This document shows positions 978 through 22,770 of a stretch of 39,565 bases of DNA, piece by piece (the first letter of the stretch is position 1; the number at the start of each line of letters is the position of its first letter). The stretch lies in the sequence record MW722083.1; one strand, written 5' to 3'. A program made the position numbers and the translations under genes. The notes under the pieces were generated by a model. It was not told the origin of the DNA, made no database searches, and saw nothing but the letters and a program-made list of their open reading frames with translations. This DNA comes from Escherichia phage vB_EcoP_ZX5.

Positions 978-992
978 TTACCAATCGGGTAA
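978..992. promoter_or_regulatory. palindromic operator-like site TTACCAATCGGGTAA upstream of the 630..956 cassette
   Basis: perfect TTACC-N5-GGTAA match between ant stop and cassette start. Confidence 0.45.
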
Positions 993-1077
993 TTTTAAAC
1001 ATGAGTATAATGCTTTTAACTGCAACGAGTGTAAACAATTATTGATAATTGTAGGCACATCCATGTGCCGCCGCTCG

Positions 1078-1773
1078 TCAGAAGAACCCTGCTTTGTCGT
1101 TGATGTACTCCGCGTGCGTCTGGATATCACGCAGGCATTTGCTCACACCGACGATGTAGCAGAACATGGTGGTCAGCTCCGCCGCCGCGCCCGATACGTC
1201 GTGCCCGTCTTCCTGTAACTGGTTCAGCAGATTCATCAGCAGTGAGTTCTCCGTCAGGCCGAGAACACCAGACGGCGAATGAATCAGGCTGCGGTAGCCG
1301 GGCTTCAGCGGGGCGCTGTAGGTTTTGTTCTCTATCTTCATCGCCTGCATTACTGCTGACGCCGTGGCGTTGGCTACCTGGTCGGCAACCATCTTTATGC
1401 GTTCTTCCTGCGGGAGCGAGTTTTTAATGTAACTTCCGGTGCGGCGGATCTGAGGAAGAACCTCACCTGTAACCCATTTACGAAAGCGGTAGGGGATAGT
1501 GCCTGGTGTCACTGCGTCGCGGCAGCGGAGGATCAGTGTGTAGAGGCCTGACTCGGAGATGATGATCGATTCTTGCTCACCGCCAGGGGTGTCGGTTGAA
1601 GCGACGCCCTTCTCATCATCATCAAGTTTTCGAACAGCATCTCGATGGTTTGCTATGCCTATAGCCCGACAAACATCTGAAGCGATAAACCATGGCTCAC
1701 CATTAATGACGATTACCCGTATATCGGCTTGGGATTCGAAAGAAAAAATGGACGTGCTTTTTGTAGCTGTCAT
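1078..1773 (-). CDS. ant: antirepressor (Bro-N type N-terminal domain plus Ant-type C-terminal domain)
   Basis: 231-aa ORF; N-terminus FSFESQADIRVIVINGEPWFIASDVCRAIG resembles Bro-N; AAGGTAA SD before ATG 1773. Confidence 0.8.
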   Translation of the reverse strand: MTATKSTSIFSFESQADIRVIVINGEPWFIASDVCRAIGIANHRDAVRKLDDDEKGVASTDTPGGEQESIIISESGLYTLILRCRDAVTPGTIPYRFRKWVTGEVLPQIRRTGSYIKNSLPQEERIKMVADQVANATASAVMQAMKIENKTYSAPLKPGYRSLIHSPSGVLGLTENSLLMNLLNQLQEDGHDVSGAAAELTTMFCYIVGVSKCLRDIQTHAEYINDKAGFF

Positions 1774-1929
1774 AGTGGTTACCTTTTAGTCTGGTTAATC
1801 ACCACTACCGACGCCAATCGGTTGGTGGTGAACTGTGCAGGGTTGGCGTAACCGGCTAAAAGGACCCGGCGCACCTTTCGGTGCCCCCACACAGCCCACC
1901 ATAATACGAATGTGGCCGTGCTATACGCA

Positions 1930-1950
1930 TAAAAAAACCGCTTGCGCGGT
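1930..1950 (-). terminator. weak intrinsic terminator or attenuator between the Ant-C paralog and ant
   Basis: 5-bp stem ACCGC/GCGGT 1937-1941/1946-1950; A7 run 1930-1936 gives U-run on minus strand. Confidence 0.3.
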
Positions 1951-2042
1951 GAATGCGCCTTTTAGTAATCCGGGACGCCAATCCCGGCACTGGATTTTGC
2001 CAGTGCTCGATTACTATGGCACAAGAGGAGTGCGTTGTAAAT

Positions 2043-2057
2043 TTACCGCAAAGGTAA
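2043..2057. promoter_or_regulatory. palindromic operator-like site TTACCGCAAAGGTAA upstream of ant
   Basis: perfect TTACC-N5-GGTAA match; extended near-palindrome AAATTTACC...GGTAAATAT. Confidence 0.45.
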
Positions 2058-2088
2058 ATATAAGCACTCCATTTGGTGATTGCAAACC

Positions 2089-2346
2089 TTATCTGGTTTG
2101 TTTTCGTAATTGTTCGGCACAATAGTCGAGATGTGTTTGCAGATCCTGCATAGACATCTGTGAGCTGGTGACGTAGTTAATCAGTGCAGTCAGTTCGGCA
2201 AGTGGGCCATCGACATTAAATCCATCCTTATCGAGATCCCGGAGTAATTTCATCAAGTGCGATCCCTCCACCAGTGACCTGACGCCTCCCGGCGTGTGAA
2301 TCCTTTCGGTAAATCCGTCTTCCAGTGGATAGTGATACTGCTGCAT
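2089..2346 (-). CDS. small protein paralogous to the C-terminal ~70 aa of the antirepressor
   Basis: 85 aa from internal ATG 2346 with GGAG SD; aligns by eye with Ant C-terminus (LMKLLRDLDKDGFNVDGPLAELT vs LMNLLNQLQEDGHDVSGAAAELT; DLQTHLDY vs DIQTHAEY); the track's longer start at 2469 would put an operator site inside the coding region. Confidence 0.5.
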   Translation of the reverse strand: MQQYHYPLEDGFTERIHTPGGVRSLVEGSHLMKLLRDLDKDGFNVDGPLAELTALINYVTSSQMSMQDLQTHLDYCAEQLRKQTR

Positions 2347-2422
2347 CTTATCTTCTCCATGCAATAACTGTATATTTATACAGTAGCAAATAATTTGTTT
2401 GCTATCCAGCACGTTTTGCAAA

Positions 2423-2437
2423 TTACCTGAAAGGTAA
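2423..2437. promoter_or_regulatory. palindromic operator-like site TTACCTGAAAGGTAA in the divergent region before the tailspike gene
   Basis: perfect match; 17-mer TTACCTGAAAGGTAATA identical to the copy at 22756. Confidence 0.45.
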
Positions 2438-2466
2438 TATCTATTCGTATTTACAGCCTTTCTATC

Positions 2467-2490
2467 CATATGTGGTTTTTCAGGTAATAG
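2467..2490 (+). promoter_or_regulatory. conserved promoter-proximal element CATATGTGGTTTTTCAGGTAATAG upstream of the tailspike gene
   Basis: 19 of 24 positions identical to 22812..22835 upstream of the head operon. Confidence 0.4.
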
Positions 2491-2541
2491 AATAACCAGA
2501 TATGCGGCGCAACGGGTGCTGCGACTATCTGGAGATTTAAC

Positions 2542-5500
2542 ATGACGGTCTCAACCGAAGTTGACCACAACGAATACACCGGTAACGGCGTTACGACATC
2601 GTTTCCGTATACTTTTCGAATTTTCAGAAAATCAGACCTGGTTGTTCAGGTGTCTGACCTGAACGGGAACGTAACAGAATTGGTTCTGGATACCGGTTAT
2701 ACGGTAACTGGGGCGGGCACTTATAGTGGCGGTTCTGTGGTTCTTCCGTCTCCGCTTGCTACTGGATGGCGAATTACGATAGATCGTGTGCTTGATGTAG
2801 TGCAGGAGACAGACCTTCGCAATCAGGGAAAATTTTTCCCCGAAGTGCATGAAGATGCCTTTGACTACCTGACGATGCTGATCCAGCAATGTTTTGGGTG
2901 GTTCAGACGTGCATTGATGAAACCATCTTTGCTTGCAAAATATTACGATGCAAAGCAAAACAAAATTTCTAACCTTGCAGATCCATCATTTGAGCAGGAC
3001 GCTGTAAATAATCGCTCAATGCGTAATTATGTCGATGCTGCAATCGCCGGGGTTGTTGGTGGTTTTGGTTGGTTTATTCAGTATGGTTCTGGGGCTGTGT
3101 ACCGAACGTTCCAGGATAAAATGCGTGATGCTATTAGCCCCAAAGATTTTGGAGCTGTTGGTGATGGTATAAATGACGATTCCACTGCAATAAGCGCGTG
3201 CCTTGAAGCCTCATCTCCAGGTTATAAAATTGACGGATTAGGGCTTACTTTTAAAGTATCAACTCTTCCGGATGTCAGTCGATTTAAAAATGCTCGTTTT
3301 TTATTTGAGAGAATACCGGGCCAGCCTCTTTTTTATGCTTCTGAAGATTTTATCCAGGGAGAGTTATTTAAAATTACAGATACACCGTGGTACAACGCCT
3401 GGACGCAGGATAAAACGTTTGTATATGACAATGTCATCTATGCGCCTTTTATGGCTGGAGACCGCCATGGTGTAAATAACCTCCATGTTGCATGGGTTCG
3501 CTCAGGAGATGACGGGAAGACCTGGACAACGCCGGAATGGCTTACAGATTTACATGAAAACTATCCCACAGTTAACTATCACTGTATGAGTATGGGGGTT
3601 GTCAGAAATCGCCTTTTTGCTGTAATTGAGACGCGGACCGTGAGAGGAAATAAACTGCAGGTTGCAGAGTTGTGGGATCGCCCAATGAGTCGCAGCCTTC
3701 GCGTTTATGGTGGTATAACGAAAGCAGCAAATCAGCAAGTCGCTTATATTCGCATTACTGATCACGGATTATTTGCTGGTGATTTTGTCAACTTCTCAAA
3801 CTCTGGTGTTACAGGTGTTACCGGGAATATGACGGTGACTACTGTTATTGATAAAAATACTTTTACAGTTACGACGCAAAATACCCAGGATGTGGATCAG
3901 AATAACGAGGGTAGATACTGGAGTTTTGGTACATCATTTCACTCGTCACCATGGAGAAAAACCAGTCTTGGAACTATTCCTTCTTTTGTTGACGGAAGCA
4001 CTCCTGTTACTGAGATTCACAGTTTTGCGACGATTAGCGATAACAGTTTTGCTGTTGGCTACCATAATGGTGATATTGGTCCACGCGAGCTTGGGATACT
4101 CTATTTCTCTGATGCTTTCGGTTCTCCTGGTAGCTTTGTTCGCAGACGCATACCTGCAGAATATGAGGCGAATGCATCTGAGCCATGTGTAAAATATTAT
4201 GATGGCATTCTGTATCTGACGACCAGGGGGACATTAAGTACTCAACCCGGTAGTTCATTGCACAGAAGCTCTGATTTAGGTACATCATGGAATTCTCTTC
4301 GCTTCCCAAATAATGTTCATCACTCAAACCTTCCTTTTGCCAAAGTTGGCGATGAGCTGATTATTTTTGGCAGTGAGCGCGCATTTGGTGAGTGGGAAGG
4401 AGGAGAACCTGATAACCGTTATGCAGGAAATTATCCAAGAACATTTATGACCAGAGTTAACGTCAATGAGTGGAGTCTGGATAATGTAGAGTGGGTTAAT
4501 GTTACTGATCAGATTTATCAGGGCGGAATAGTTAACTCTGCGGTTGGTGTTGGTTCAGTTTGTATCAAAGACAACTGGCTGTACTACATTTTCGGTGGGG
4601 AAGACTTTCTAAACCCATGGAGCATAGGGGATAACAACAGAAAATATCCTTATGTTCACGATGGTCACCCGGCTGATTTGTATTGTTTCAGGGTGAAAAT
4701 TAAACAGGAAGAATTTGTTTCAAGGGATTTTGTCTACGGAGCCACTCCTAACAGAACGCTTCCTACTTTTATGTCGACGTCAGGCGTGAGGACGGTTCCT
4801 GTACCCGTTGATTTCACAGATGATGTTGCCGTCCAGTCACTGACTGTCCATGCAGGTACATCAGGACAAGTTCGCGCGGAAGTCAAACTTGAGGGTAATT
4901 ACGCCATTATTGCGAAGAAAGTACCGTCTGATGATGTTACCGCTCAGAGATTAATCGTTAGCGGCGGTGAAACAACGTCTTCAGCAGATGGTGCAATGAT
5001 AACGTTGCATGGTTCCGGAAGCAGTACTCCACGTCGCGCGGTATATAACGCACTCGAACATCTTTTTGAGAACGGAGATGTTAAACCTTATCTTGATAAT
5101 GTAAATGCTCTTGGTGGTCCGGGAAACAGGTTCTCGACAGTTTATCTTGGCTCCAATCCTGTGGTTACCAGTGACGGAACATTAAAGACAGAGCCGGTCT
5201 CTCCTGACGAAGCATTGCTGGATGCCTGGGGTGACGTCAGGTATATCGCTTATAAATGGCTGAACGCTGTCGCTATAAAGGGGGAAGAAGGGGCGAGGAT
5301 ACATCATGGTGTAATCGCGCAGCAACTTCGTGATGTTCTTATTTCTCACGGACTCATGGAAGAAGAAAGCACAACATGCCGCTATGCCTTTCTTTGCTAT
5401 GACGATTATCCCGCAGTATATGATGACGTCATTACTGGCCAAAGGGAAATGCCGCTGACTGATAATGACGGGAGCATCATTGTTGATGAGGATGATAATC

Positions 5501-5661
5501 CAGTGATGGTAATGGAAGACATCATTGAGCGCGTTGAAATAACGCCAGCAGGATCTAGATGGGGGGTCAGACCTGATCTCTTATTCTATATCGAGGCAGC
5601 ATGGCAGCGCAGAGAAATGGATAAGATAAAAGAGCGGATTCAGTCTCTGGAAGAACGTTAA
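2542..5661 (+). CDS. tailspike: T7 gp17-like N-terminal anchor, pectate-lyase-like beta-helix signature, C-terminal S74-type intramolecular chaperone domain
   Basis: 1039-aa ORF with GGAGA SD; N-terminus GNGVTTSFPYTFRIFRKSDLVVQV; central DFGAVGDGINDDSTAI motif; C-terminal chaperone-like block. Confidence 0.85.
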   Translation: MTVSTEVDHNEYTGNGVTTSFPYTFRIFRKSDLVVQVSDLNGNVTELVLDTGYTVTGAGTYSGGSVVLPSPLATGWRITIDRVLDVVQETDLRNQGKFFPEVHEDAFDYLTMLIQQCFGWFRRALMKPSLLAKYYDAKQNKISNLADPSFEQDAVNNRSMRNYVDAAIAGVVGGFGWFIQYGSGAVYRTFQDKMRDAISPKDFGAVGDGINDDSTAISACLEASSPGYKIDGLGLTFKVSTLPDVSRFKNARFLFERIPGQPLFYASEDFIQGELFKITDTPWYNAWTQDKTFVYDNVIYAPFMAGDRHGVNNLHVAWVRSGDDGKTWTTPEWLTDLHENYPTVNYHCMSMGVVRNRLFAVIETRTVRGNKLQVAELWDRPMSRSLRVYGGITKAANQQVAYIRITDHGLFAGDFVNFSNSGVTGVTGNMTVTTVIDKNTFTVTTQNTQDVDQNNEGRYWSFGTSFHSSPWRKTSLGTIPSFVDGSTPVTEIHSFATISDNSFAVGYHNGDIGPRELGILYFSDAFGSPGSFVRRRIPAEYEANASEPCVKYYDGILYLTTRGTLSTQPGSSLHRSSDLGTSWNSLRFPNNVHHSNLPFAKVGDELIIFGSERAFGEWEGGEPDNRYAGNYPRTFMTRVNVNEWSLDNVEWVNVTDQIYQGGIVNSAVGVGSVCIKDNWLYYIFGGEDFLNPWSIGDNNRKYPYVHDGHPADLYCFRVKIKQEEFVSRDFVYGATPNRTLPTFMSTSGVRTVPVPVDFTDDVAVQSLTVHAGTSGQVRAEVKLEGNYAIIAKKVPSDDVTAQRLIVSGGETTSSADGAMITLHGSGSSTPRRAVYNALEHLFENGDVKPYLDNVNALGGPGNRFSTVYLGSNPVVTSDGTLKTEPVSPDEALLDAWGDVRYIAYKWLNAVAIKGEEGARIHHGVIAQQLRDVLISHGLMEEESTTCRYAFLCYDDYPAVYDDVITGQREMPLTDNDGSIIVDEDDNPVMVMEDIIERVEITPAGSRWGVRPDLLFYIEAAWQRREMDKIKERIQSLEER

Positions 5662-5687
5662 AAAAAAGCCCGCAATATTTTGCGGGT
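5661..5687. terminator. hairpin just after the tailspike stop (terminator-like; U-tract better on minus strand)
   Basis: 7-bp stem 5669-5675/5680-5686, loop TATT, preceded by A7. Confidence 0.4.
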
Positions 5688-5967
5688 ATCAAAAACGGAG
5701 TTGGTGAAAAGTTATCTTTGAATTCTATCATGAATCAGTACGTATTTTAAATACATGTTCAGGTTTATTACACCATAGCATTATTAAATACAAAATTAAG
5801 TCTATGGTTCCTGTACAACTGCCCCCACTCTGCTGGCTCGTTCTGTAAAATCATTAGTACTTTTATTGAGATATATGATATGGAACAATAATGATTCATA
5901 TATGGTTTACTATGCGGGTTTAGTCATCAATAATTGACTGGCTTATAGATAGTAAACAGGAGAAAGT

Positions 5968-6372
5968 ATGTCTGCTCAAGTAACAAGTGAGCAATTAAAT
6001 CAGTTGCTTAGTTTTGGTTCTCTTGCTGCGGTTATTGCAGGTGTCCCTCCGGAGGTTGCTTTAGGGGCTTTGGCTGGGGCGGTAATTTTTGTTACCTCTG
6101 CAGTAGAGTACCCCATCCGTCGCCGGGTGCTCCTGTCGATGCTCAGCTTTCTTTGCGGCCTTCTCTTTTACAAACCAGCAGCATCAATTCTTATCGGCAT
6201 AGCCAGCCTGATCCCTACCATCACGCAGGACTCTTTTGAAAAAGGGATTGTTTTCTCTGCAGGCGCATTCGTGTCAGCAATTGTCGCTGTGCGTATTGGT
6301 ATATGGCTCTATCACCGTTCCGATAATCCACGCGAGTTAATTCCGGGGAGAAAAGACGATGGTAACGCATGA
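5968..6372 (+). CDS. holin-like membrane protein (about 4 TM segments)
   Basis: 134-aa hydrophobic ORF with GGAGAAAG SD, immediately before the endolysin. Confidence 0.6.
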   Translation: MSAQVTSEQLNQLLSFGSLAAVIAGVPPEVALGALAGAVIFVTSAVEYPIRRRVLLSMLSFLCGLLFYKPAASILIGIASLIPTITQDSFEKGIVFSAGAFVSAIVAVRIGIWLYHRSDNPRELIPGRKDDGNA

Positions 6373-6667
6373 GTTTTTTTTGCTTATCACCAATGCAGTT
6401 ATTTGCACTGGCATAGCAATTCGCGTTGTCACATTCCGGCGTAACGGCTCTCAACATCGAAGGTGGGGAGGATGGCTTGCTTATTTCCTGATTGTTGCTG
6501 CGGCCAGTATTCCTGTTCGAGTCGCCTATGCAATCTGGTTACGTACGCCAATGGCTGTGGATTTATCTGAGGTCATTATCAACGCTGTCATGCTGGCTGC
6601 GGTTATTAAAACGCGCGGTAACGTCGTTCAAATTTTTAAAGTATCGAGGTCTAAACATGGAGATTAA
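6359..6667 (+). CDS. second holin/antiholin-like membrane protein (about 3 TM segments)
   Basis: 102-aa ORF with GGGGAGAAAA SD; overlaps upstream gene by 14 nt and endolysin by 11 nt. Confidence 0.5.
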
Positions 6668-7286
6668 ACAATTCCAGCGAGCTGCTGGTATCAGCGAGGC
6701 ACTGGCCGCACGCTGGTTCTCGCATATAACTTCTGCGATGAAAGAGTTTGGTATCAGCAAAGCAGAAGATCAGGCAATGTTTATTGCTCAAGTCGGGCAT
6801 GAGTCTGGGGGCTTCACCAGGTTGCAGGAGAATTTCAACTACAGTGTCAGCGGACTGGCTAACTTCGTTCGGGCTGGGCGTCTCACTCAGGGGCAGGCTA
6901 ATGCACTGGGGCGCCGTGCTGGTGAACCACCATTGCCACTTGAGCGCCAGCGCGCGATCGCAAATCTGGTATACAGCAAACGCATGGGGAACAATGCCCC
7001 TGGTGATGGCTGGAATTACCGAGGGCGCGGACTTATCCAGATTACCGGTTTGAATAACTATCGTGATTGCGGAAACGGTCTGAAGGTTGACCTGCTGGAG
7101 AGCCCTGAACTGCTGGCGCAGGACGGATATGCGGCTCGTAGCGCGGCGTGGTTCTTCGCCAGCAAAGGATGCATGAAGTATACCGGCGATATTGCACGTG
7201 TAACTCTGATTATCAATGGTGGCCGGAACGGCATCGACGACCGGCGAGCGCGGTACATCACTGCCAGTAAGGTGCTGGCGGTATGA
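6657..7286 (+). CDS. endolysin, glycoside hydrolase family 19 (chitinase-like) type
   Basis: 209 aa from ATG 6657 with GAGGT SD; motifs [12 protein letters not shown] and [12 protein letters not shown]; the track start 6492 is an unsupported 5' extension. Confidence 0.85.
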
Positions 7287-7765
7287 TCTGGGCATTCGTA
7301 AAAGCATACTGGAAACAGTTTCTTATCGTGGCAGTGCTTGCTGTTCTGGTCATATCAGGAGTGGTTGCCTGGAATATACACGGCAGTCGCCAGTACGATG
7401 CCGGGTATGCTCAGGCGGAAGAAGACCGCAAAGCCGAAGAAGACAAAGTTCGTCAGTACTACGAACAGGAGAAAGTGACCAATGAACGTGAAGCTCAGCA
7501 GAGGATCGACCAGGCGAGCAATGATGCTCTTGATGCTGCCGCTAGCGCTGGCCGGTTGCAGCAACAACTCTTTGCCATCCGTGAGCAGCTCAGGCAGTAT
7601 AACGCCATTGTCGGCGCTGGGTCGTCAGCCGCAGACACCGGAGTTTTGCTTGCCGACGTGCTCAGCAAATCTCTCGAGAGAAACAGACAACTGGCAGAGT
7701 ATGCTGACCGGGCAGCCGAAGCAGGAAGAGTCTGCGAAAAACAGTACGACACTTTGACCAGATAG
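7283..7765 (+). CDS. i-spanin (Rz-like), N-terminal TM plus coiled coil
   Basis: ATGA overlap with endolysin stop; N-terminal [20 protein letters not shown], charged periplasmic coiled coil. Confidence 0.75.
7521..7757 (+). CDS. o-spanin (Rz1-like lipoprotein) nested in the +1 frame of the i-spanin gene
   Basis: [13 protein letters not shown] lipobox, Pro-rich, wholly embedded in 7283..7765. Confidence 0.7.
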   Translation: MMLLMLPLALAGCSNNSLPSVSSSGSITPLSALGRQPQTPEFCLPTCSANLSRETDNWQSMLTGQPKQEESAKNSTTL

Positions 7766-7936
7766 CATGGCATTTTTCATGGTACTGATTTCCGGTGACG
7801 GTATATAAAACGGTACGGAAAAAATTGAGATTTGGAAAAATGTTATCACTCAATTGGTTATGGTTATCGTAAATAATTGAGTGGGAATGATTAACAGCTA
7901 ACTCATAGCAACTCATTCCTATTCAGATACTAATTT

Positions 7937-7969
7937 AACCCTCTGTTTTTACAGAGGGTTTTTGTTTTT
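7937..7969 (+). terminator. strong intrinsic terminator after the lysis cassette
   Basis: 10-bp stem AACCCTCTGT/ACAGAGGGTT, loop TTTT, followed by TTTGTTTTT. Confidence 0.75.
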
Positions 7970-8025
7970 ATGTATTCATTTCTATTCACTCTACACCATA
8001 TTTTTCGTCGGTACAGGTGACGGTA

Positions 8026-8040
8026 TTACCTTAAAGGTAT
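8026..8040. promoter_or_regulatory. palindromic operator-like site TTACCTTAAAGGTAT upstream of int
   Basis: one mismatch to TTACC-N5-GGTAA; abuts the second GGTGACGGTAT repeat. Confidence 0.35.
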
Positions 8041-8082
8041 ACTCTCATACCGTCATGAAAATGGTTTCTATACGGGTGAATT

Positions 8083-9333: not shown

Positions 9334-9336
9334 CGT

Positions 9337-13047: not shown

Positions 13048-13062
13048 TTACCGTTGAGGTAA
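13048..13062. promoter_or_regulatory. palindromic operator-like site TTACCGTTGAGGTAA (OL-like, proximal)
   Basis: perfect match 20 bp upstream of the first leftward early gene. Confidence 0.45.
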
Positions 13063-13109
13063 TAATTATGCGTATTTGGTTTGATGTCAATAGATATGAG
13101 TTAAAAAAA

Positions 13110-13124
13110 TTACCCATTAGGTAA
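13110..13124. promoter_or_regulatory. palindromic operator-like site TTACCCATTAGGTAA (OL-like, distal)
   Basis: perfect match between the repressor terminator and the leftward early operon. Confidence 0.45.
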
Positions 13125-13181: not shown

Positions 13182-13766
13182 TTATTGTTTGTTTTTTTCG
13201 TTCTGGTTGATGACAAATTCAATGTAACTTTCGATCTTTGCTTTCTCGGTTTCGGGTAACAATGCGTAGCGCGAGCGGTCATAGTTGATGGTCGCAGGGT
13301 CGTGCGGGTGAATCAGTAATTCATAGCCGTGACGCCCGAATGCGGATGCAACATTCTCCAGGGTGGAAATGGAAACGCTGACCTCATTGTTTAACAGGCG
13401 ACTGATTGTCACCTGGGCGACGCCGGATGCGCGGTGAAGTTTTCCCTGCGTTGAAAGGTCGCGGCTTTCGCTCATCCAGCGTTCCAGGTTGTGAGCCGCC
13501 AGCTGACCTATATCGCTCGGGCCGACAGGCTGAAAACCTTCCTGAGAAAGCGAGCGATCGATATCAAGCCAGTTACGTGGTTTATTGGCGGCAGCTTCAA
13601 TTTTTCGCGCAACCTGGTCGCCGATAACCTTCTTGCCAAGAGCCCAGCGGTTTACCAGATTTGCCTGAGTTCCAAGTTTTTCTGCCATCCGCGTCTGAAC
13701 ACCATTGAATTCACGGTCGATCAAGTCGTTGAGATTTTGCCTGCGGACGTCCTGGATACTTTTCAT
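13182..13766 (-). CDS. repressor with two helix-turn-helix motifs (tandem HTH)
   Basis: 194 aa; HTH-like QTRMAEKLGTQANLVNRWALGKK and SGVAQVTISRLLNNEVSVSISTLENVASAF; divergent from the cro-like gene across an operator-rich spacer. Confidence 0.65.
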   Translation of the reverse strand: MKSIQDVRRQNLNDLIDREFNGVQTRMAEKLGTQANLVNRWALGKKVIGDQVARKIEAAANKPRNWLDIDRSLSQEGFQPVGPSDIGQLAAHNLERWMSESRDLSTQGKLHRASGVAQVTISRLLNNEVSVSISTLENVASAFGRHGYELLIHPHDPATINYDRSRYALLPETEKAKIESYIEFVINQNEKNKQ

Positions 13767-13821: not shown

Positions 13822-13884
13822 TTACCCAACAGGTAAATGCACCTCATAGGTAACTATCCTTGATTTTTGTTACCTTATGGGTGA
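13822..13884. promoter_or_regulatory. OR-like operator cluster of three sites between repressor and cro-like genes
   Basis: TTACCCAACAGGTAA 13822-13836; GCACCTCATAGGTAA 13839-13853; TTACCTTATGGGTGA 13870-13884. Confidence 0.5.
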
Positions 13885-13920
13885 ATATTTATTATCTGAA
13901 ATAAATATCAGGCAATAGCT

Positions 13921-14151
13921 ATGAGCGATAACGGACATTTCGATTTCAAAAAGCACTGGCTTGCACTTACTCCGGATGAGCGTGAAGCCTTCGCACAGGA
14001 AGCCGGAACGACGAGTCACTATATCCAGACTCACTTAACAGGTAAGCGCAAAATGCCAGGTAAAGTATTGATGAATGGGCTTTTTAAAGCCTGTAAAACA
14101 AGACAATGGCTGCGCTCAAAAGCAGAACTGGCATACTTCTTCTACTCATGA
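13921..14151 (+). CDS. Cro-like small DNA-binding protein
   Basis: 76-aa ORF divergent from the repressor; followed by a terminator. Confidence 0.55.
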   Translation: MSDNGHFDFKKHWLALTPDEREAFAQEAGTTSHYIQTHLTGKRKMPGKVLMNGLFKACKTRQWLRSKAELAYFFYS

Positions 14152-14173
14152 TATCCAGCTACAACCCTCTGTA

Positions 14174-14196
14174 GACCGCCATCCGGCGGTCTTTTC
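14174..14196 (+). terminator. intrinsic terminator after the cro-like gene (tR1-like)
   Basis: 7-bp stem GACCGCC/GGCGGTC, loop ATCC, then TTTT. Confidence 0.6.
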
Positions 14197-14206
14197 ATAT
14201 CTATTC

Positions 14207-14221
14207 GTACCTCAAAGGTAA
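14207..14221. promoter_or_regulatory. palindromic operator-like site GTACCTCAAAGGTAA
   Basis: one mismatch; between the cro terminator and the replication genes. Confidence 0.35.
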
Positions 14222-14299
14222 TAAAAAACCAAATCTGGTTGATCAAATTTTCCAATTGTGCAAAATAGCCAATATCAATAACAAAAAGGGGCGGAAAAA

Positions 14300-16071: not shown

Positions 16072-16108
16072 TACCAGCGCGATAGCGCATTTTTTTACGC
16101 CTCGATAA

Positions 16109-16123
16109 TTACCTGTTAGGTAA
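16109..16123. promoter_or_regulatory. palindromic operator-like site TTACCTGTTAGGTAA
   Basis: perfect match downstream of the P-like gene. Confidence 0.45.
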
Positions 16124-16170
16124 CAAAATATTATAAACTCTATTGATTTCATGTCTTATGTGGTTTTTAA

Positions 16171-16185
16171 TTACCTCAGAGGTAA
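16171..16185. promoter_or_regulatory. palindromic operator-like site TTACCTCAGAGGTAA overlapping the RBS of 16189..16533
   Basis: perfect match; its GAGGT half doubles as the Shine-Dalgarno 3 nt before ATG 16189. Confidence 0.4.
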
Positions 16186-16188
16186 ATC

Positions 16189-16533
16189 ATGAGAAAACAG
16201 ATACAGGCTCTTGGTCGACTCAAAACAGGCCAGATGAACAAAACTGAATCTGCGTATTGCCAGCACCTTGAGCTGCGTAAACGTGCAGGGGAAATCGCCT
16301 GGTATCGATTCGAGGGTATCAAGCTGCGGTTAGCTGACAACACGTTCTATACGCCAGATTTCGCTGTGATGCTCGCCACCGGAGAGATGGAACTGCACGA
16401 AGTGAAAGGTTTCTGGACCGACGACGCCAGGGTGAAAACCAAAGTCGCCGCAGATCAGTATCCGTTCCGAATCATCGGGGTAACGGTTAAACCAAAGAAA
16501 GCAGGTGGTGGCAGGAACATCGAAGAGTTCTGA
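16189..16533 (+). CDS. DUF1064-like phage protein
   Basis: 114 aa; ELRKRAGEIAWYRFEGIKLRL...FYTPDFAV pattern recalled from DUF1064. Confidence 0.5.
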   Translation: MRKQIQALGRLKTGQMNKTESAYCQHLELRKRAGEIAWYRFEGIKLRLADNTFYTPDFAVMLATGEMELHEVKGFWTDDARVKTKVAADQYPFRIIGVTVKPKKAGGGRNIEEF

Positions 16534-16594
16534 ATCGACGATCTTTTTAGTTATCAATGTAATCAATAAGTTATGTGGATAAGCGAGGGTAAAG

Positions 16595-17158
16595 ATGGAA
16601 AGTAATATCAAAGGGTTAGTTGCCGCCGGGCATGAGATGGCTTCGGAACTGAAAGCAGAATGTGGTGCCGTTGATATGCGCAGTGTGGCAAAGCTGATCA
16701 GCGATTTGGCAACGCAACTGGAAGTGCAACTGGTGCGTGCTAATGCGCTGGCGGCGGAGAATGCACTTGCTCGTAAAGCTGTTCAGGCATTCTGTGAGGT
16801 TGTTGGCGACAACACTGAGATTATCTCCGAGTTGGTTGGGCAAGATGGCGTTCTGGTTATTTTGAAGGCCATGAAGGCAACAGGAAATATGTCAGCCACC
16901 GACGCTTTCCTGGCTGAAATACGTGCGGAGGCACGCAACGAGGGGATTAACTACACCGCAAGCCGTCTTGCTGCTGCGTTCAATCACGGATTTATCAATA
17001 AGTCTTTGCGTGAAGTTTTCGACGTTACACGCATGATTTTGTCAGCGAAAGAAGAGTTGGCTAATGAACCGCATCCGATTGATGGCCTGTCCGGTGAATA
17101 TGCGGAGAAATCCCTTGAAGAATGGGCGGAACAGATTCGCAAAGGAGTTCAGTCATGA
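16595..17158 (+). CDS. hypothetical early protein
   Basis: 187-aa ORF with GAGGGTAAAG SD. Confidence 0.55.
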   Translation: MESNIKGLVAAGHEMASELKAECGAVDMRSVAKLISDLATQLEVQLVRANALAAENALARKAVQAFCEVVGDNTEIISELVGQDGVLVILKAMKATGNMSATDAFLAEIRAEARNEGINYTASRLAAAFNHGFINKSLREVFDVTRMILSAKEELANEPHPIDGLSGEYAEKSLEEWAEQIRKGVQS

Positions 17159-17388
17159 GCATCCGAACTGAACATGGATTTGGTCCTTCAACGGTCGAAG
17201 TCGAATGGCTTGATGATTGCCCTAGGTGCCAGCACGGCAAAGCCAGGGTAACAGGATGGTCGGTAACCAAAGATTCTTTGTGGGCGGGTGATGAGGCCGT
17301 TTGTTCCAAATGCGGTCACAAAGGTGAAATCGATGCTGATGGAGAGAATGCCTGGGTGGAATGGGACGAAATCGAGGAGGCACAATGA
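17155..17388 (+). CDS. small zinc-ribbon protein
   Basis: CPRCQHG...CSKCGH motif; ATGA overlap at both ends. Confidence 0.55.
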   Translation: MSIRTEHGFGPSTVEVEWLDDCPRCQHGKARVTGWSVTKDSLWAGDEAVCSKCGHKGEIDADGENAWVEWDEIEEAQ

Positions 17389-18047
17389 GCAACATCGACA
17401 TCGACATCGACATCGACATCGACACACTGGCACTGCGTGAGGCGGCACAGAACGCGAAAGATTTAGGTGGGATTAAGAATTACAAGCGAGGTGAGCAAGC
17501 TGTTGCCGAATTTGAGTCCTTGATAACGCCACACATTGTGCTGGCACTGCTGGATGAGAACGAAAGCATGTGCCGCGACCTCATTGCTCGCAATGGTGAG
17601 ATTGAAGGGCTTCGAAAACTGGTTGCTGAACTTGAGGAGACAAAATCACAACTCAACGAGCAGCGTGAGTATTACGAAGGCGTTATCTCTGATGGGAGCA
17701 AGCGTATTGCTGAACTGGAGAAAAGCGAAGAGCAACTCATTAACGAGCGTGACCATGCTGAGTCTGCTTTAGCTGATATGTATTTTGCAGCAACCGGGGA
17801 TAGGCCTGAGTGGAGTAACTGGTTCGGTTTTTCAGATGCAGTAGATGCCGTAGTTGACAGAATTGCTGATTTAGAAGCTAAACAGCCATCGCCAGTAGTA
17901 CCTGAAGGACTGATTAAAGCGGTGCGTTTTTATGAGCAGGTAAAACGTGAGAACCCGCCAGTCGAAACCGGAGCATGGAAAGACGCTGTTGACTGGGTGC
18001 TCAAAGAGGCTTGCCAGGCTGTAAACATTGGCATCAAAGGAGAGTGA
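17385..18047 (+). CDS. coiled-coil protein with N-terminal (Ile-Asp)5 repeat
   Basis: 220 aa from ATG 17385; MSNIDIDIDIDIDTL. Confidence 0.55.
   Translation: MSNIDIDIDIDIDTLALREAAQNAKDLGGIKNYKRGEQAVAEFESLITPHIVLALLDENESMCRDLIARNGEIEGLRKLVAELEETKSQLNEQREYYEGVISDGSKRIAELEKSEEQLINERDHAESALADMYFAATGDRPEWSNWFGFSDAVDAVVDRIADLEAKQPSPVVPEGLIKAVRFYEQVKRENPPVETGAWKDAVDWVLKEACQAVNIGIKGE
17394..17423. repeat. hexanucleotide tandem repeat (ATCGAC)x5 within coding sequence
   Basis: five perfect tandem units read directly. Confidence 0.9.
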
Positions 18048-18048
18048 G

Positions 18049-18240
18049 ATGAACGGACAAATATCAATTGTTCGACCGGTAGCATGTGACGATAGCGAGA
18101 TACGAATGATTATTCGTCTGGCAATGGGGAAAACAATAACTGCTCTCATTACTCCTGAAAATCTCGCATTAGCGTTAACAGGAAAGTCAGACCTGCCAGT
18201 AGAGCTAAAGCTGCGAAATGTTGAGATTAAGGTGAAATAG
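18049..18240 (+). CDS. small hypothetical protein
   Basis: 63 aa from ATG 18049 with GGAGAG SD. Confidence 0.45.
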   Translation: MNGQISIVRPVACDDSEIRMIIRLAMGKTITALITPENLALALTGKSDLPVELKLRNVEIKVK

Positions 18241-18242
18241 CT

Positions 18243-18857
18243 ATGACCACTATTACCAAAGAACGTATCGAATTATTCATTAAAAATCCGCTTGATAACG
18301 GACTTACCCGTGGCGAACAAATGGAACTGGCACGAATTGCTCTGGCATCGCTGGAAGCAGAGCCGATAGGTTTCCGTTGCAGGCGCAATGATAACCTTGG
18401 TGATTGGAGTTACGTATATCATCGAGAGCCAGATGATTTTGAGCGCAAACATTTAGTGATAGAGGGCATTTACGCCGCCCCTCCAGCACCGGTAGTGCCG
18501 GATGAACGTGCAGCTTTCAATGCCTGGAACAACGACGAGAACCTACCCATAGCTGGTGTCGGCGCAAAAAACGCTGCCTGGTTAGCTTGGCAAGCCCGCG
18601 CAGAGTTGGGCCGCTCGTTAGCTGTAAACTCTCCGGGAACTCCGGATAGTTGGATAAGCTGTAGTGATCGAATGCCGGAAGACACCAAAATGTTACTGGC
18701 ATTTAGTCAAGGTGAAATCGTGGCAGCATATTGGAACTGGGTAATGAGTCCAATTGATTACAAAAAATATAGAGCTTTCACATATTTATCAGGAAATATC
18801 TTGGATGACGTAACCCACTGGATGCCACTACCGGAACCGCCGCAGGAGGCGAAATGA
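18243..18857 (+). CDS. DUF551-like phage protein
   Basis: C-terminal THWMPLPEPP motif typical of DUF551 as recalled. Confidence 0.55.
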   Translation: MTTITKERIELFIKNPLDNGLTRGEQMELARIALASLEAEPIGFRCRRNDNLGDWSYVYHREPDDFERKHLVIEGIYAAPPAPVVPDERAAFNAWNNDENLPIAGVGAKNAAWLAWQARAELGRSLAVNSPGTPDSWISCSDRMPEDTKMLLAFSQGEIVAAYWNWVMSPIDYKKYRAFTYLSGNILDDVTHWMPLPEPPQEAK

Positions 18858-19207
18858 TGGACTATTCACAGTTAAGTGATTTTGAAATTAACAGAATGGT
18901 AGGAGACATAATTTTTAAAGGCCTTTGGGCGTGTAAACCGGAAACATCAGGGAATAACACCAACAAATGGTATTACGGAAATACTGATACAACTTTTGAG
19001 CCATTAAACCCTTTACCTGACTACTGCAATAATCCATCGGATGCATGGCCTATTATTGTTGATAATAAAATCAGTCTAACCTGCCACCATTCTCGCGGTG
19101 AGTGGTCAGCTGTTTTTAATACCGAGAACATTTGCTTTCATGCGAATAATCCACTCAGAGCCGCCATGATTGTATTTCTCATGATGCAGGAAAATCAGAA
19201 TGGCTAA
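18854..19207 (+). CDS. hypothetical protein
   Basis: 117-aa ORF, ATGA overlap with upstream gene. Confidence 0.5.
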   Translation: MMDYSQLSDFEINRMVGDIIFKGLWACKPETSGNNTNKWYYGNTDTTFEPLNPLPDYCNNPSDAWPIIVDNKISLTCHHSRGEWSAVFNTENICFHANNPLRAAMIVFLMMQENQNG

Positions 19208-19538
19208 ATCAGCAGCAGAGCGCAAAGCCGCTCAGAGAGCCAGACAAGTTGCATCTGGTGTGCGTAAGCTGGAAATTGTGCTTGATGCTCAGGAAATTGA
19301 AATGCTTGAGCGTAACTGTGCCGCGCGTCGCCCCGGGCGTGCGCCTTACGAATTTGGTGAGTATATAGCGTTACTGATCCGCCAGGATGATGCACGCGTG
19401 CACGGGCGTATAAAATCGATCAGCAGAAAACGTTGCGGTAAGTGCGGCGAGAGAGTTCCAGTTAATTCATGTCCGTGTAATGGTGACTCACAATGCTGGG
19501 TGACTAAAGGCTGGCATGAAACGAAATTAATAGTGTGA
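19200..19538 (+). CDS. small zinc-finger protein, candidate late-gene regulator
   Basis: 112 aa; C-terminal CGKCGERVPVNSCPCNGDSQC; last gene before the terminator preceding terS. Confidence 0.5.
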   Translation: MAKSAAERKAAQRARQVASGVRKLEIVLDAQEIEMLERNCAARRPGRAPYEFGEYIALLIRQDDARVHGRIKSISRKRCGKCGERVPVNSCPCNGDSQCWVTKGWHETKLIV

Positions 19539-19546
19539 CATGTCAC
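19535..19546. repeat. 12-bp perfect palindrome GTGACATGTCAC (copy 1) overlapping the stop codon of 19200..19538
   Basis: exact match, one of three copies. Confidence 0.9.
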
Positions 19547-19587
19547 GAGTAGATTATGCATGATGAATTTGATGGGTTTTGAATACT

Positions 19588-19613
19588 GCCGCCAACTATG
19601 GCGGCTTTATTTT
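19588..19613 (+). terminator. intrinsic terminator between the early-right operon and terS
   Basis: 7-bp stem GCCGCCA/TGGCGGC, loop ACTA, then TTTATTTT. Confidence 0.7.
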
Positions 19614-19624
19614 GCATGGTACTA

Positions 19625-19639
19625 TTACCACAACGGTAA
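19625..19639. promoter_or_regulatory. palindromic operator-like site TTACCACAACGGTAA just upstream of terS
   Basis: perfect match inside a longer near-palindrome CATGGTACTATTACC...GGTAACTATTACCATG. Confidence 0.45.
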
Positions 19640-19647
19640 CTATTACC

Positions 19648-20253
19648 ATGGTGGTTATGATGCCTGCTGAACCTAAAACCTATAAACGCAAATCAACGCA
19701 ATTTAAGCCACTAACAGCAATGCAGGAGGCTTATTGCCAGTCATACATCAAAACGCCTGAAAACCAGACTCAGGCAGCGATTAACGCAGGATTCTCTCCA
19801 AATACAGCGGCAGTTAAAGCCAGTGTCATGATGCGCGATGAACGCATTCAAAAACGGATTGCCGAGTTGATGGAGGAGCGCAACAAACGAATGCGCGTCA
19901 GTGCCGATTACGTTCTCATGCGCCTGGTGGAGATCGACCAGATGGACGTGATTGATATCCTCAACGACGATGGGAGCCTTAAGCCAATCCGCGAGTGGCC
20001 GAAAATCTGGCGCACTACGCTTAGCGGCTTTGATCTGTCATCGACCATCATGAACATGAACGAGGATTCGATAGAGACAATCCTCAAAAAAATTAAATGG
20101 CCTGACAAGGTGAAGAACCTCGAACTGATTGGTAAGCACGTCGACGTCAACGCATTCAAAGAACGCCTGGATGTTAATGTGAATGTGACAATTGCTGATC
20201 GCATAGCGGCAGCCAGGAAGCGACTCAAAGAACGTCAGGATGGTAATCAGTGA
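19648..20253 (+). CDS. terS: terminase small subunit
   Basis: 201 aa from ATG 19648; the track start 19579 would span a terminator and operator; position immediately before the large subunit. Confidence 0.7.
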   Translation: MVVMMPAEPKTYKRKSTQFKPLTAMQEAYCQSYIKTPENQTQAAINAGFSPNTAAVKASVMMRDERIQKRIAELMEERNKRMRVSADYVLMRLVEIDQMDVIDILNDDGSLKPIREWPKIWRTTLSGFDLSSTIMNMNEDSIETILKKIKWPDKVKNLELIGKHVDVNAFKERLDVNVNVTIADRIAAARKRLKERQDGNQ

Positions 20254-21725
20254 CAGATACAGCGTTATCTCCTGAAGAGCAGTTGATCGAGGATATTGCA
20301 GGGTTCACTCACGATCCGCTTGGTTATGCCCTCTATGCGTTCCCGTGGGGGGAAGAGGGGACTGAACTGGCACATGCTACCGGCCCACGTCAGTGGCAGG
20401 CTGATGCGTTCCGAGAGATACGTGATCACCTGCAGAATCCAGAGACGCGCTATCAGCCGCTTATGCTGGCACGCGCTTCTGGTCACGGTATTGGTAAATC
20501 CGCATTCATCTCAATGCTGATCAACTGGGGCATGTCCACTTGCGAGGATTGTAAGGTCGTGGTGACCGCCAACACCGACAACCAGCTACGAACGAAGACC
20601 TGGCCGGAAATTATCAAGTGGTCGAACCTTGCTATCACGAAAGACTGGTTTACCTGTACCGCTACCGCGATGTACAGCAATGATCCTGGACACGACAAGC
20701 GGTGGCGAGCTGACGCAATCCCCTGGTCTGAGCACAACACTGAGGCATTCGCCGGACTACACAACGAGCGCAAACGCATCATCGTGGTGTTTGATGAAGC
20801 GTCGAACATTGCGGATCTGGTGTGGGAAGTTGCCGAGGGTGCGCTTACGGACGAAGACACTGAGATTATTTGGGTGGCGTTCGGAAACCCTACACGTAAC
20901 ACCGGGCGTTTTCGCGAATGTTTCCGCAAATATAAACACCGCTGGAAAACTGCGCAGATTGACAGCCGGACGGTGGAAGGCACTAACAAACAGCAGTTGC
21001 AGAAATGGGTTGATGACTACGGGGAAGACAGCGACTTCGTTAAAATCCGTGTGCGTGGCATATTCCCTGATGCATCTGAATTGCAGTTTATCCCTACCGG
21101 TCTTACTGACGAGGCAATGAAACGGGTGGTAACCGCTGCGCAGGTTGCACATGCTCCGGTGATAATCGGCGTTGACCCGGCATACTCCGGCGTTGATGAC
21201 GCTGTGATATACCTGCGGCAGGGGCTACACAGTAAGGTGCTGTGGACTGGCAACAAGACTACCGACGATCTGATTATGGCGAAGCGTATCGCTGACTTTG
21301 AAGACCAGTATCAGGCTGACGCGGTGTTCATCGACTTCGGTTACGGAACCGGTTTGAAGTCAATCGGTGACGGCTGGGGTCGTACATGGCAACTTGTTCC
21401 GTTCGGTGGCGCGTCTACTGACCCGCAGATGCTCAACAAGCGTGGGGAGATGTTCAACTCATGCAAGACATGGCTGAGGCTCGGCGGCATGCTGGATGAC
21501 CAGGAAACAGCGGACGACCTGTCGGCAGCAGAGTACAAAGTTCGAGTGGACGGTAAAATCGTTATCGAACCGAAGGAAGATATCAAAGAGCGACTTGGGC
21601 GTTCTCCTGGTAAAGGCGATGCGCTACTGCTGACGTTTGCGTTCCCTGTGTCGAAGCGTCTGCGAATTCCCGGTCAGCAGAACCAGCAAGGCAAGGCCAT
21701 TACAGATTACGATCCCTATGCTTAA
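20250..21725 (+). CDS. terL: terminase large subunit
   Basis: 491 aa; Walker A-like GHGIGKS and nuclease region; GTG start overlapping the terS stop. Confidence 0.85.
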   Translation: MTDTALSPEEQLIEDIAGFTHDPLGYALYAFPWGEEGTELAHATGPRQWQADAFREIRDHLQNPETRYQPLMLARASGHGIGKSAFISMLINWGMSTCEDCKVVVTANTDNQLRTKTWPEIIKWSNLAITKDWFTCTATAMYSNDPGHDKRWRADAIPWSEHNTEAFAGLHNERKRIIVVFDEASNIADLVWEVAEGALTDEDTEIIWVAFGNPTRNTGRFRECFRKYKHRWKTAQIDSRTVEGTNKQQLQKWVDDYGEDSDFVKIRVRGIFPDASELQFIPTGLTDEAMKRVVTAAQVAHAPVIIGVDPAYSGVDDAVIYLRQGLHSKVLWTGNKTTDDLIMAKRIADFEDQYQADAVFIDFGYGTGLKSIGDGWGRTWQLVPFGGASTDPQMLNKRGEMFNSCKTWLRLGGMLDDQETADDLSAAEYKVRVDGKIVIEPKEDIKERLGRSPGKGDALLLTFAFPVSKRLRIPGQQNQQGKAITDYDPYA

Positions 21726-21775
21726 TCCGTTAGCGGGGATAATGACGGAGATATCCTCTGGTGAGGATAAAACAA

Positions 21776-21800
21776 AGCCAGCTCATCGGCTGGCTGTTTG
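21776..21800. terminator. hairpin between convergent terL and the minus-strand moron
   Basis: 7-bp stem AGCCAGC/GCTGGCT 21776-21782/21789-21795; U-tract better on minus strand. Confidence 0.45.
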
Positions 21801-21811
21801 TGACATGTCAC
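21800..21811. repeat. 12-bp perfect palindrome GTGACATGTCAC (copy 2)
   Basis: exact match 5 bp past the stop of 21816..22154 and abutting the hairpin. Confidence 0.9.
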
Positions 21812-21815
21812 GGTG

Positions 21816-22154
21816 TTATTGCTCGCTTAACTTCTGCTTCAGCAAGTAACCTTCAAGCATCCAGATTTTGTTTACAGCATTCTGCCGGGCAATCTTCCGA
21901 CCAATTTCCGCATCAAAGTTTTCTGGGCTTGCACAGGCGCTCTCTCCGGTGACGGTGAAGCCATTTTGTAGAGTTAATACACAAAATGTCAGCAGAGCCA
22001 AACTGTCGTGATAGTCATCGCCAGTTGCAATAGCTCCATCAGCAGCAGTGAAGTACGTTTCCGCAAGAATAATGCTTTCGATATGGTCTGGCGTAACGCG
22101 CGGGGCGGCTAAACCTTTAGCCTGAATTTCAGATTCAATGTCTTTGTCACTCAT
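21816..22154 (-). CDS. hypothetical protein (possibly N4 gp49 / Sf6 gene 66 family), minus-strand moron in the late region
   Basis: 112 aa with AAGGTGA SD; family guess from recollection only. Confidence 0.5.
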   Translation of the reverse strand: MSDKDIESEIQAKGLAAPRVTPDHIESIILAETYFTAADGAIATGDDYHDSLALLTFCVLTLQNGFTVTGESACASPENFDAEIGRKIARQNAVNKIWMLEGYLLKQKLSEQ

Positions 22155-22170
22155 AGTCTATTCTCACCTT

Positions 22171-22193
22171 AAAAAATGCCCGGCGAACCGGGC
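22171..22193 (-). terminator. terminator-like hairpin immediately upstream of the moron RBS
   Basis: 6-bp stem GCCCGG/CCGGGC 22178-22183/22188-22193, loop CGAA; A6 on plus gives U6 on minus. Confidence 0.45.
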
Positions 22194-22270
22194 GAACTGG
22201 AGGCAATGAGTTATGCCTCCCGTGGCTGTACTGGTTTACAGCATGAAGTCATCGCAATGGCGTCCTGCTG

Positions 22271-22313
22271 TAAAAATGGCGGTGATAGTCCTTCAAGGGA
22301 AACCATCACCGCC
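22271..22313 (-). terminator. tRNA-trailer terminator-like hairpin
   Basis: 8-bp stem GGCGGTGA/TCACCGCC 22278-22285/22306-22313 with 20-nt loop; A-run 22272-22276 on plus gives U-run on minus. Confidence 0.4.
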
Positions 22314-22356
22314 AAGCCCCTGGAACTTCTGGCATCACGGTCCTTAGGCGTGATTC

Positions 22357-22433
22357 TGGCGTGGCATGCAGGATTCGAACCTGCGACCAACCGCTTAGAA
22401 GGCGGTTGCTCTGTCCAGCTGAGCTAATGCCAC
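22357..22433 (-). tRNA. tRNA-Arg (anticodon UCU), CCA encoded
   Basis: 77 nt; acceptor GTGGCAT/ATGCCAC, D-arm GCTC...GAGC, anticodon arm ACCGC-CTTCTAA-GCGGT, T-arm GCAGG-TTCGAAT-CCTGC, discriminator G, CCA. Confidence 0.85.
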
Positions 22434-22755
22434 AACGCTGAGAGCACTTAGCCTGTTAAGGCGCCACACTTTGTCGCGGCTCCATAAATGCTCTCATCGT
22501 TGTACCCTCGTCTCTTCCGAGGCGTCACACCGAATCGCCGGGATGGTGAATCCCCGTGCGCGGAATAAAACCGCTCGACTTGCACATTCCGGCTACCTGG
22601 TTCGTTTGCCCGAGCAAGGGAGGGTGCCCCTTAAACGTATCCAGACCGCTATCGGCGCATGTGCCATACGCCGTACTGCTCAAAATAAAAGCTCACTCCA
22701 CCTGTTCAATTTAACGACAAGCCAGTCAGGTTAGTAACCGGAATGAACTCTTTGG

Positions 22756-22770
22756 TTACCTGAAAGGTAA
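22756..22770. promoter_or_regulatory. palindromic operator-like site TTACCTGAAAGGTAA upstream of the head operon
   Basis: perfect match, identical 17-mer to 2423..2439. Confidence 0.45.

Follow-up and report, generated by a model that had tools for sequence, protein, structure and literature searches.

The stretch of DNA analysed here (hereafter the window) comprises 39,565 nucleotides of Escherichia phage vB_EcoP_ZX5 (ZX5; sequence record MW722083.1), an epsilon15-like podophage of the genus Uetakevirus that is 97-98% identical to phages phiV10, TL-2011b and HEMP4 over most of this length. A palindrome, TTACC-N5-GGTAA (N being any nucleotide), recurs in it ahead of many transcription units. 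We find that these palindromes are very probably the operators of the phage repressor Rep (13182..13766, minus strand), which would act within the LexA-Ant-Rep lysogeny switch known from Salmonella phage SPC32H. ZX5 gains an operator map and a probable induction route (LexA, then Ant, then Rep), both left open by the paper describing the phage (PMC9782041). For the genus, records of the motif, of the repressor family and of the antirepressor logic already exist; this is a known system, not a discovery, and current understanding is not overturned. What is added here is modest, namely the geometry of promoters and operators, a 62-base pair (bp) pairing of sites, a rule relating repressor type to half-sites spaced by four or five nucleotides (N4 or N5), a second antirepressor gene under predicted Rep control and a conserved box at late units.

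The palindromes are highly non-random and lie in noncoding DNA

Ten perfect copies of TTACC-N5-GGTAA were present in the window, all at the coordinates given in a preliminary description of this DNA. That description put the chance expectation at 0.04 copies; dinucleotide shuffles gave a mean of 0.01 and never reached ten. When up to one mismatch was allowed, 14 sites were found against 0.59 expected. The one-mismatch copies start at 8026, 13870, 14207 and 19643. Four near copies had been listed previously and the first three of these stand, but 19643 was overlooked and the remaining one, 13839, has two mismatches (GCACC...GGTAA). Site 13839 is the positional equivalent of a perfect site in epsilon15 (eps15), SPC32H and BUCT711, lying 17 bp from the first site of the gap between rep and the cro-like gene. 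In an unbiased count of every 5-Nx-5 palindrome, the TTACC-N5 palindrome ranked first in the window. The palindromes are highly non-random, far beyond chance.

Sites were divided into coding and noncoding using a curated gene map that leaves 7.9% of the window noncoding. Every one of the 14 sites with no or one mismatch fell in this fraction, as the preliminary description had proposed, and the probability of all ten perfect sites falling there is about 1e-11. By contrast, 27 of 28 two-mismatch matches were coding, the sole exception being 13839. Counting 13839, some 15 sites stand ahead of about nine units over 22 kb, and 10 of the 15 lie outside the immunity region.

The operator layout is conserved across the genus

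The same palindrome was the highest ranked in all seven Uetakevirus genomes tested (ZX5, eps15, phiV10, SPC32H, Tyrion, BUCT711 and TL-2011b), each with 8-11 perfect copies. The Rep proteins of these genus members are only 42-100% identical despite the common motif. Sites occupy equivalent positions with conserved spacing across the genus. Pooling 61 unique sites from the seven genomes gave the consensus A-TTACC-N2-W-N2-GGTAA-T, and the centre base was A or T in 120 of 122 half-site observations from this pool.

Part of this layout is annotated in the GenBank record of Salmonella phage eps15 (AY150271.2). It holds seven protein_bind features described as 'repressor' (lysogeny), all of the form ATTACC-N5-GGTAAT: one before terS, one before the head unit, one before the tailspike gene, three at the leftward early promoter P_L and one after the replication genes. 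Perfect copies at 24704, 33341, 33358 and 35969 of eps15 carry no annotation in that record. ZX5 shares with eps15 an identical motif, the equivalent terS, head, tailspike, P_L and post-replication positions and the dispersed distribution (11 perfect copies in eps15), but the two Reps are 42-43% identical, and ZX5 has extra sites at 978, 2043 and 14207 whilst lacking the eps15 site at the lysis cassette. Three claims of the preliminary description are borne out by the eps15 annotation and the genus layout: that the motif resembles an operator and belongs with the 13182..13766 repressor, that sites are spread over many transcription units beyond the immunity region, and that the rep-cro gap holds three of them and the upstream region of the leftward early operon two, the others preceding the ant, tailspike, terS, head and replication units. 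A literature search for TTACC-N5-GGTAA sites in eps15 or SPC32H, whose scope did not extend to the primary eps15 and SPC32H papers, returned no description of them. The eps15 genome was reportedly presented by Kropinski et al. in 2007.

The product of 13182..13766 matches the SPC32H repressor

The rep gene encodes a protein of 194 amino acids that matches SPC32H Rep (PDB 5D50) over its full length. Residues 1-190 were aligned to chain 5D50_A (E 4e-42, phmmer against PDB), and PDB 5D4Z matches the C-terminal half; among solved structures, SPC32H Rep is the nearest relative. Pfam identified a helix-turn-helix (HTH) domain, HTH_3, at residues 106-147 (1.2e-9), and a weak, sub-threshold HTH-type hit was present at residues 21-61. 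The two HTH-like regions that had been noticed in this one chain are thus confirmed, and the GenBank record of phiV10 likewise notes 'two helix-turn-helix motifs' in its repressor. No S24 peptidase domain was found in Rep, for which Pfam gave only HTH families at E values up to 0.01; the positive control, the cI repressor of Pseudomonas phage PseuP_224, was recovered as Peptidase_S24 at 2.6e-22.

PMC9986798 assigns SPC32H Rep an N-terminal DNA-binding domain, a middle HTH-fold dimerization domain and a C-terminal tetramerization and Ant-binding domain. By this domain map, the HTH_3 hit falls within the dimerization domain. PMC9638917 and PMC9986798, both citing Kim et al. 2016, further state that SPC32H Rep is a tetramer on palindromic DNA and that an Ant tetramer splits it into dimers. 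The N-terminal domain of Rep is the best conserved across the genus (53% identity between ZX5 and SPC32H, against 34% and 43% for the other two), and its segment N36-L-V-N-R-W41 was invariant in a six-genome alignment. The middle domain's putative recognition helix differs among phages whose half-site is identical.

On this basis, one Rep subunit would read each TTACC half-site through its N-terminal HTH domain, and a palindrome would engage two such domains. Rep would dimerize through its middle HTH-fold domain and tetramerize through its C-terminal tail. One tetramer would then present two DNA-reading pairs and so could hold two operators at once, which fits the paired arrangement of sites described below.

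Operators overlap core promoter elements

P_L, the promoter of the leftward early operon (13062..13090, minus strand), consists of TTGACA (13090-13085), a 17-bp spacer and AATTAT, scoring 10/12 in a promoter scan. Its -35 and -10 elements were invariant in six genomes. Base 13062 is shared: it closes the -10 hexamer (13067..13062, minus strand) and opens the perfect proximal operator (13048..13062). The perfect distal operator (13110..13124) directly follows the rep terminator, 62 bp upstream of the proximal site. A matching arrangement is found after the replication genes, where TTGATT (16143-16148) and TTTAAT (16166-16171) are separated by 17 bp and the -10 again ends on the first base of a perfect operator (16171..16185), which also covers the ribosome-binding site of the gene at 16189. 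The distal partner of this site, also perfect, is at 16109..16123 and is preceded by a terminator. A minus-strand promoter-like site between operators 16109 and 16171 (16130-16157; AAGACA-16-TATAAT, 10/12) points into the replication genes and could be an antisense promoter or a chance match.

Two other perfect operators abut leftward promoter-like sites. Operator 2043..2057 adjoins the site 2086..2057, which faces a gene for a Bro-N/Ant fusion protein, and operator 978..992 adjoins the site 1019..992 of the accessory cassette; at both, the final base of the -10 element doubles as the operator's first. Hexamer and operator thus share one base at P_L, 16171, 2057 and 992. This geometry places the operator over the transcription start, and Rep bound there should obstruct RNA polymerase at all four.

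In the immunity region, the gap between rep and the divergent cro-like gene holds a perfect operator (13822..13836), the degenerate two-mismatch site (13839..13853), which is included for its positional equivalence to perfect sites in relatives, and a one-mismatch operator (13870..13884). The last of these, a weaker operator, fills the -35/-10 spacer of the rightward early promoter. An invariant TTGATT lies just upstream of it (13860-13865) and the promoter scan called 13867-13895. The cro-like gene (13921..14151, plus strand) encodes a small regulator assigned to phrog_35, transcriptional repressor, at 5.6e-13. Beyond it, a weak one-mismatch operator (GTACC; 14207..14221) stands between a terminator (14173-14192) and the replication genes; phiV10 and Tyrion have the identical mismatch in the identical place.

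Both P_L and the post-replication promoter have their two sites at a distance of 62 bp; the pairs ahead of terS and within the rep-cro gap are closer, at 17-18 bp. The 62-bp spacing at P_L was conserved in all genomes compared. Among the distances between successive sites at 141 Rep-type loci, 62 bp was by far the commonest (191 cases), followed by 63 bp (59) and 17 bp (57).

The late units carry operators at conserved positions. Upstream of terS are a perfect operator (19625..19639), conserved in relatives and placed after a terminator (19588-19605), and a second, one-mismatch operator (19643..19657) 18 bp from it, which ends 2 nt before the terS ATG (19660). The perfect operator upstream of the head-gene unit (22756..22770) is the equivalent of the annotated eps15 repressor site 2931-2947, and the perfect operator in the ant-tailspike gap (2423..2437) is that of eps15 site 19895-19911.

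Taken as a whole, this map would have Rep silence about nine units together in a lysogen: the early-left unit, the early-right unit with replication, the post-replication block, terS, head, tailspike, both antirepressor genes and the accessory cassette. Published experiments with ZX5 ORF21 (open reading frame 21, the 13182..13766 product) found that its overexpression blocked lytic growth, abolished free phage and lowered holin and endolysin transcripts about 10,000-fold (PMC9782041).

Several observations weigh against so broad and direct an action. No Rep operator was found at the ZX5 lysis cassette, whose upstream region (5662-5967) is AT-rich, so at least part of the drop in holin and endolysin transcripts must be indirect. 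The corresponding site is perfect in eps15 and has one mismatch in phiV10, SPC32H and Tyrion. A weak site (8026..8040) lies 43 bp upstream of int but is ambiguous. Its GGTAT mismatch is identical in all seven genomes, it lies inside a hairpin (8005-8065; -16.6 kcal/mol, z -2.0) and it abuts a repeated GGTGACGGTAT element of Int arm type (also at 7785-7800); the eps15 counterpart is annotated with integrase and RNase III sites. This int-proximal site may thus be conserved for other reasons. A 62-bp loop would be very tight, making the bridging of a 62-bp pair by one tetramer speculative. Finally, standard scanning gave no sigma-70-like promoter at the sites of terS, head or tailspike, where hexamers fitted by hand were also too weak, so promoter occlusion at these units is putative. 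The preliminary description's phrase 'nearly every operon' was therefore an overstatement, although many units do carry sites.

The lack of recognisable promoters favours the idea that sites at the late units (terS, head and tailspike) are stoperator-like roadblocks or blocks of ribosome-binding sites, which would stop read-through. The terS sites fit such a role, coming just after a terminator and reaching almost to the start codon, as does the coverage of a ribosome-binding site by operator 16171. We nevertheless consider it unlikely. P_L, the post-replication promoter and the rightward early promoter all have an operator that overlaps their core elements; the palindromic sites are orientation-free, unlike stoperators; and a conserved CAT-ATGTGGTT box 45-57 bp downstream suggests dedicated late promoters nearby.

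This second box, CAT-AT(G/A)TGGTT, was seen at 2468-2477, 5898-5907, 16156-16165 and 22813-22822. Ahead of the tailspike, lysis and head units it follows Rep operators, 45-57 bp further downstream, and it also occurs inside the spacer of the post-replication promoter. The head-unit version is nearly invariant across all seven genomes, with a lone GGTAAT half-site after it. The count of the ATATGTGGTT box in the window is not significant alone (6 against 2.76 expected). The box might serve as a late promoter or a leader element, or it might be an activator site.

The half-site follows the N-terminal domain of Rep

Relatives of the Rep N-terminal domain are encoded in 379 viral contigs, making the system common. 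A word-indexed protein search with this domain as query recovered near-identical fragments only. In PseuP_224 and 19 viral contigs, the repressors share with Rep only the N-terminal domain, which is fused to an S24 peptidase. These S24-type repressors belong to Pseudomonas-type siphophages (L007, 19922-20836; loci L088-L106). They offer a natural comparison, in which one DNA-binding domain is used with different oligomerization modules.

All S24-type loci carried TTACC-N4-GGTAA, with 55 N4 and no N5 sites in the 19 contigs. Two copies lie upstream of the repressor gene, and one lies just downstream in 17 of the 19 contigs and in PseuP_224. In 80 Rep-type loci, all with identical N-terminal domains, there were 389 N5 sites and no N4 site. 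Because the shared domain goes with N4 in S24-type loci and with N5 in Rep-type loci, the half-site tracks the N-terminal domain and the spacing tracks the oligomerization scaffold, a pattern that held in the sequence of every locus examined. The PseuP_224 sites occurred only beside the repressor gene (31.7 kb examined), so the dispersed distribution is a feature of Rep-type phages. Klebsiella-type Rep loci (L107-L152) each have one N4 variant (TTACCAAATGGTAA) as a third P_L site beside N5 sites; Rep-type phages tolerate or use one N4 site.

These comparisons bear on whether the motif chiefly serves something other than Rep, be it the cro-like protein, a host protein or a late regulator, with Rep bound only around its own gene. 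The cro-like protein is weakly similar to the HTH region of the Rep N-terminal domain (27% over 41 amino acids, E 0.004), operator sharing as in lambda is plausible, and the motif is conserved in phages of four host genera. Even so, unrelated Pseudomonas siphophages, which differ in host and in neighbouring genes, have the half-site along with the Rep N-terminal domain; dispersed and immunity-region sites are indistinguishable in sequence; and the eps15 annotators assigned dispersed sites to the repressor. We therefore regard this alternative as very improbable, and the possibility of a host-factor site or promoter element was rejected for the first of these reasons. The cro-like product may still compete with Rep for its operators.

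The preliminary description had proposed that a single Rep chain reads both half-sites with its two HTH motifs in tandem. The presence of two HTH-like regions, also remarked on in the phiV10 record, invites this model, but it is scarcely credible: a perfect inverted repeat calls for two identical heads with two-fold symmetry, PMC9638917 and PMC9986798 make the middle HTH fold of SPC32H Rep a dimerization domain and only the N-terminal domain DNA-binding, S24-type repressors, which have no middle HTH at all, go with the same TTACC/GGTAA half-sites, and it is the N-terminal NLVNRW segment that is invariant whilst the middle recognition helix is variable.

An antirepressor predicted to be under LexA control provides a probable induction route

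The preliminary description missed the antirepressor, predicted to be controlled by LexA, that would drive induction. The small ant gene (2089..2346, minus strand), which adjoins the tailspike gene, encodes an antirepressor of 85 amino acids belonging to phrog_450 and 87% identical to SPC32H Ant. A predicted LexA box with a perfect sequence, CTGTATATTTATACAG, lies at 2368..2383, 22 bp upstream of the ant ATG. A LexA box was found at the equivalent position in eps15, SPC32H, phiV10, Tyrion and TL-2011b, making six genomes with ZX5. Operators 2043 and 2423 bracket small ant at a distance of 380 bp; the bracket is conserved, with 380 bp in phiV10 and 383 bp in Tyrion. Kim and Ryu reportedly showed in 2013 that LexA represses ant in SPC32H, and that Ant inactivates a non-cleavable Rep. 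Every sequence element of this circuit is present in ZX5, with the LexA box as a prediction. Like the SPC32H switch (PDB 5D50 and 5D4Z), ZX5 has a full-length Rep without S24, a closely similar Ant, a LexA box at the same distance from ant and the TTACC-N5-GGTAA palindrome (10 perfect copies in SPC32H). It differs in that the Reps are 42% identical and that ZX5 adds a Bro-N/Ant fusion behind a Rep operator.

This second antirepressor gene (1078..1773, minus strand; ORF4 of the ZX5 paper) encodes a Bro-N domain (Pfam, 2.3e-21) with an Ant-like C-terminus, residues 150-226 of which match SPC32H Ant chain 5D50_E (1e-13). In the phiV10 counterpart of the gene, the Ant-like part is truncated. The position of ORF4 behind Rep operator 2043 suggests positive feedback, or a feed-forward loop, after Rep is released. 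Overexpression of ORF4 was found to lower lysogeny (PMC9782041). That paper calls the action of repressor and antirepressor a 'mystery' and names ORF4 as the only antirepressor; its text mentions no operator, palindrome, binding site or LexA.

Induction in ZX5 would then proceed as follows. Upon DNA damage LexA would leave the box at 2368-2383 and small Ant would be made. Ant would dismantle the Rep tetramer, which would free every operator at the same time. The Bro-N/Ant gene, itself controlled by Rep, would next strengthen the switch. We infer the occupancy of each ZX5 site by Rep, the bridging of paired sites by one tetramer and the feed-forward loop from the arrangement of these elements.

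Further matches to the LexA pattern CTGT-N8-ACAG, at 22226 and 26768, were rejected as chance occurrences, neither being near ant. The match at 26768 abuts a gene end and that at 22226 lies inside a doubtful ORF; both recur in phiV10 and TL-2011b as conserved sequence.

Relation to other dispersed-operator and lysogeny systems

Phage P1 C1 is one repressor that acts at many dispersed, asymmetric 17-bp operators of many operons, with an antirepressor involved. ZX5 likewise has an antirepressor and many operators scattered before several operons, but its sites are perfect inverted repeats with an A/T centre. The stoperators bound by gp71 of mycobacteriophage L5 are asymmetric 13-bp sites that lie in one orientation inside transcription units and number more than 20. 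In both L5 and ZX5, repressor sites lie outside the immunity region, including before late genes; the roughly 15 ZX5 sites are palindromic and orientation-free, and overlap promoters wherever promoters could be mapped. The comparison with P1 C1 and stoperators made in the preliminary description holds as a functional analogy only.

With lambda-type CI/S24 systems, PseuP_224 cI included, ZX5 shares a divergent repressor/cro pair and multiple operators on both sides of the repressor gene; with the PseuP_224 group it also shares the Rep N-terminal domain and the TTACC half-site. The PseuP_224-type S24 repressors are, however, built for RecA-dependent self-cleavage and have N4 sites only beside the repressor gene, whereas Rep has no S24 domain, N5 and dispersed sites, and is inactivated by Ant. 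According to PMC9986798, Rco of plasmid pLS20 also combines an N-terminal DNA-binding domain, a C-terminal p53-like tetramerization fold linked to DNA looping and an antirepressor partner. Rco differs in being a plasmid conjugation regulator without the middle dimerization domain, and looping by Rep is putative.

These comparisons allow a wider reading, which we offer tentatively and rate at somewhat short of an even chance: that Rep directly silences about nine units genome-wide and that one DNA-reading domain is reused on different oligomer scaffolds. In its first part, each promoter would be clamped by one tetramer bound to two operators, one over the transcription start and its partner exactly 62 bp upstream, and structural operons would be among the roughly nine directly repressed units in a lambda-sized podophage. 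In its second part, the scaffold would set both the half-site spacing (N4 for S24 dimers, N5 for Rep tetramers) and the local or genome-wide spread of sites. If true, ZX5 would have a P1-like immunity built from symmetric sites.

Other features of the window

The attP core was located at 7876-7892, 191 bp before the int start (8083). The ZX5 paper also places it about 190 bp upstream of int (PMC9782041). Upstream of the lysis cassette, the relatives of ZX5 have an O-antigen acetylase gene, which is absent from ZX5. A tRNA-Arg gene (anticodon TCT) lies at 22357-22433 on the minus strand and overlaps ORF 22176..22427, annotated as a hypothetical protein in phiV10; because of this overlap the ORF is doubtful.

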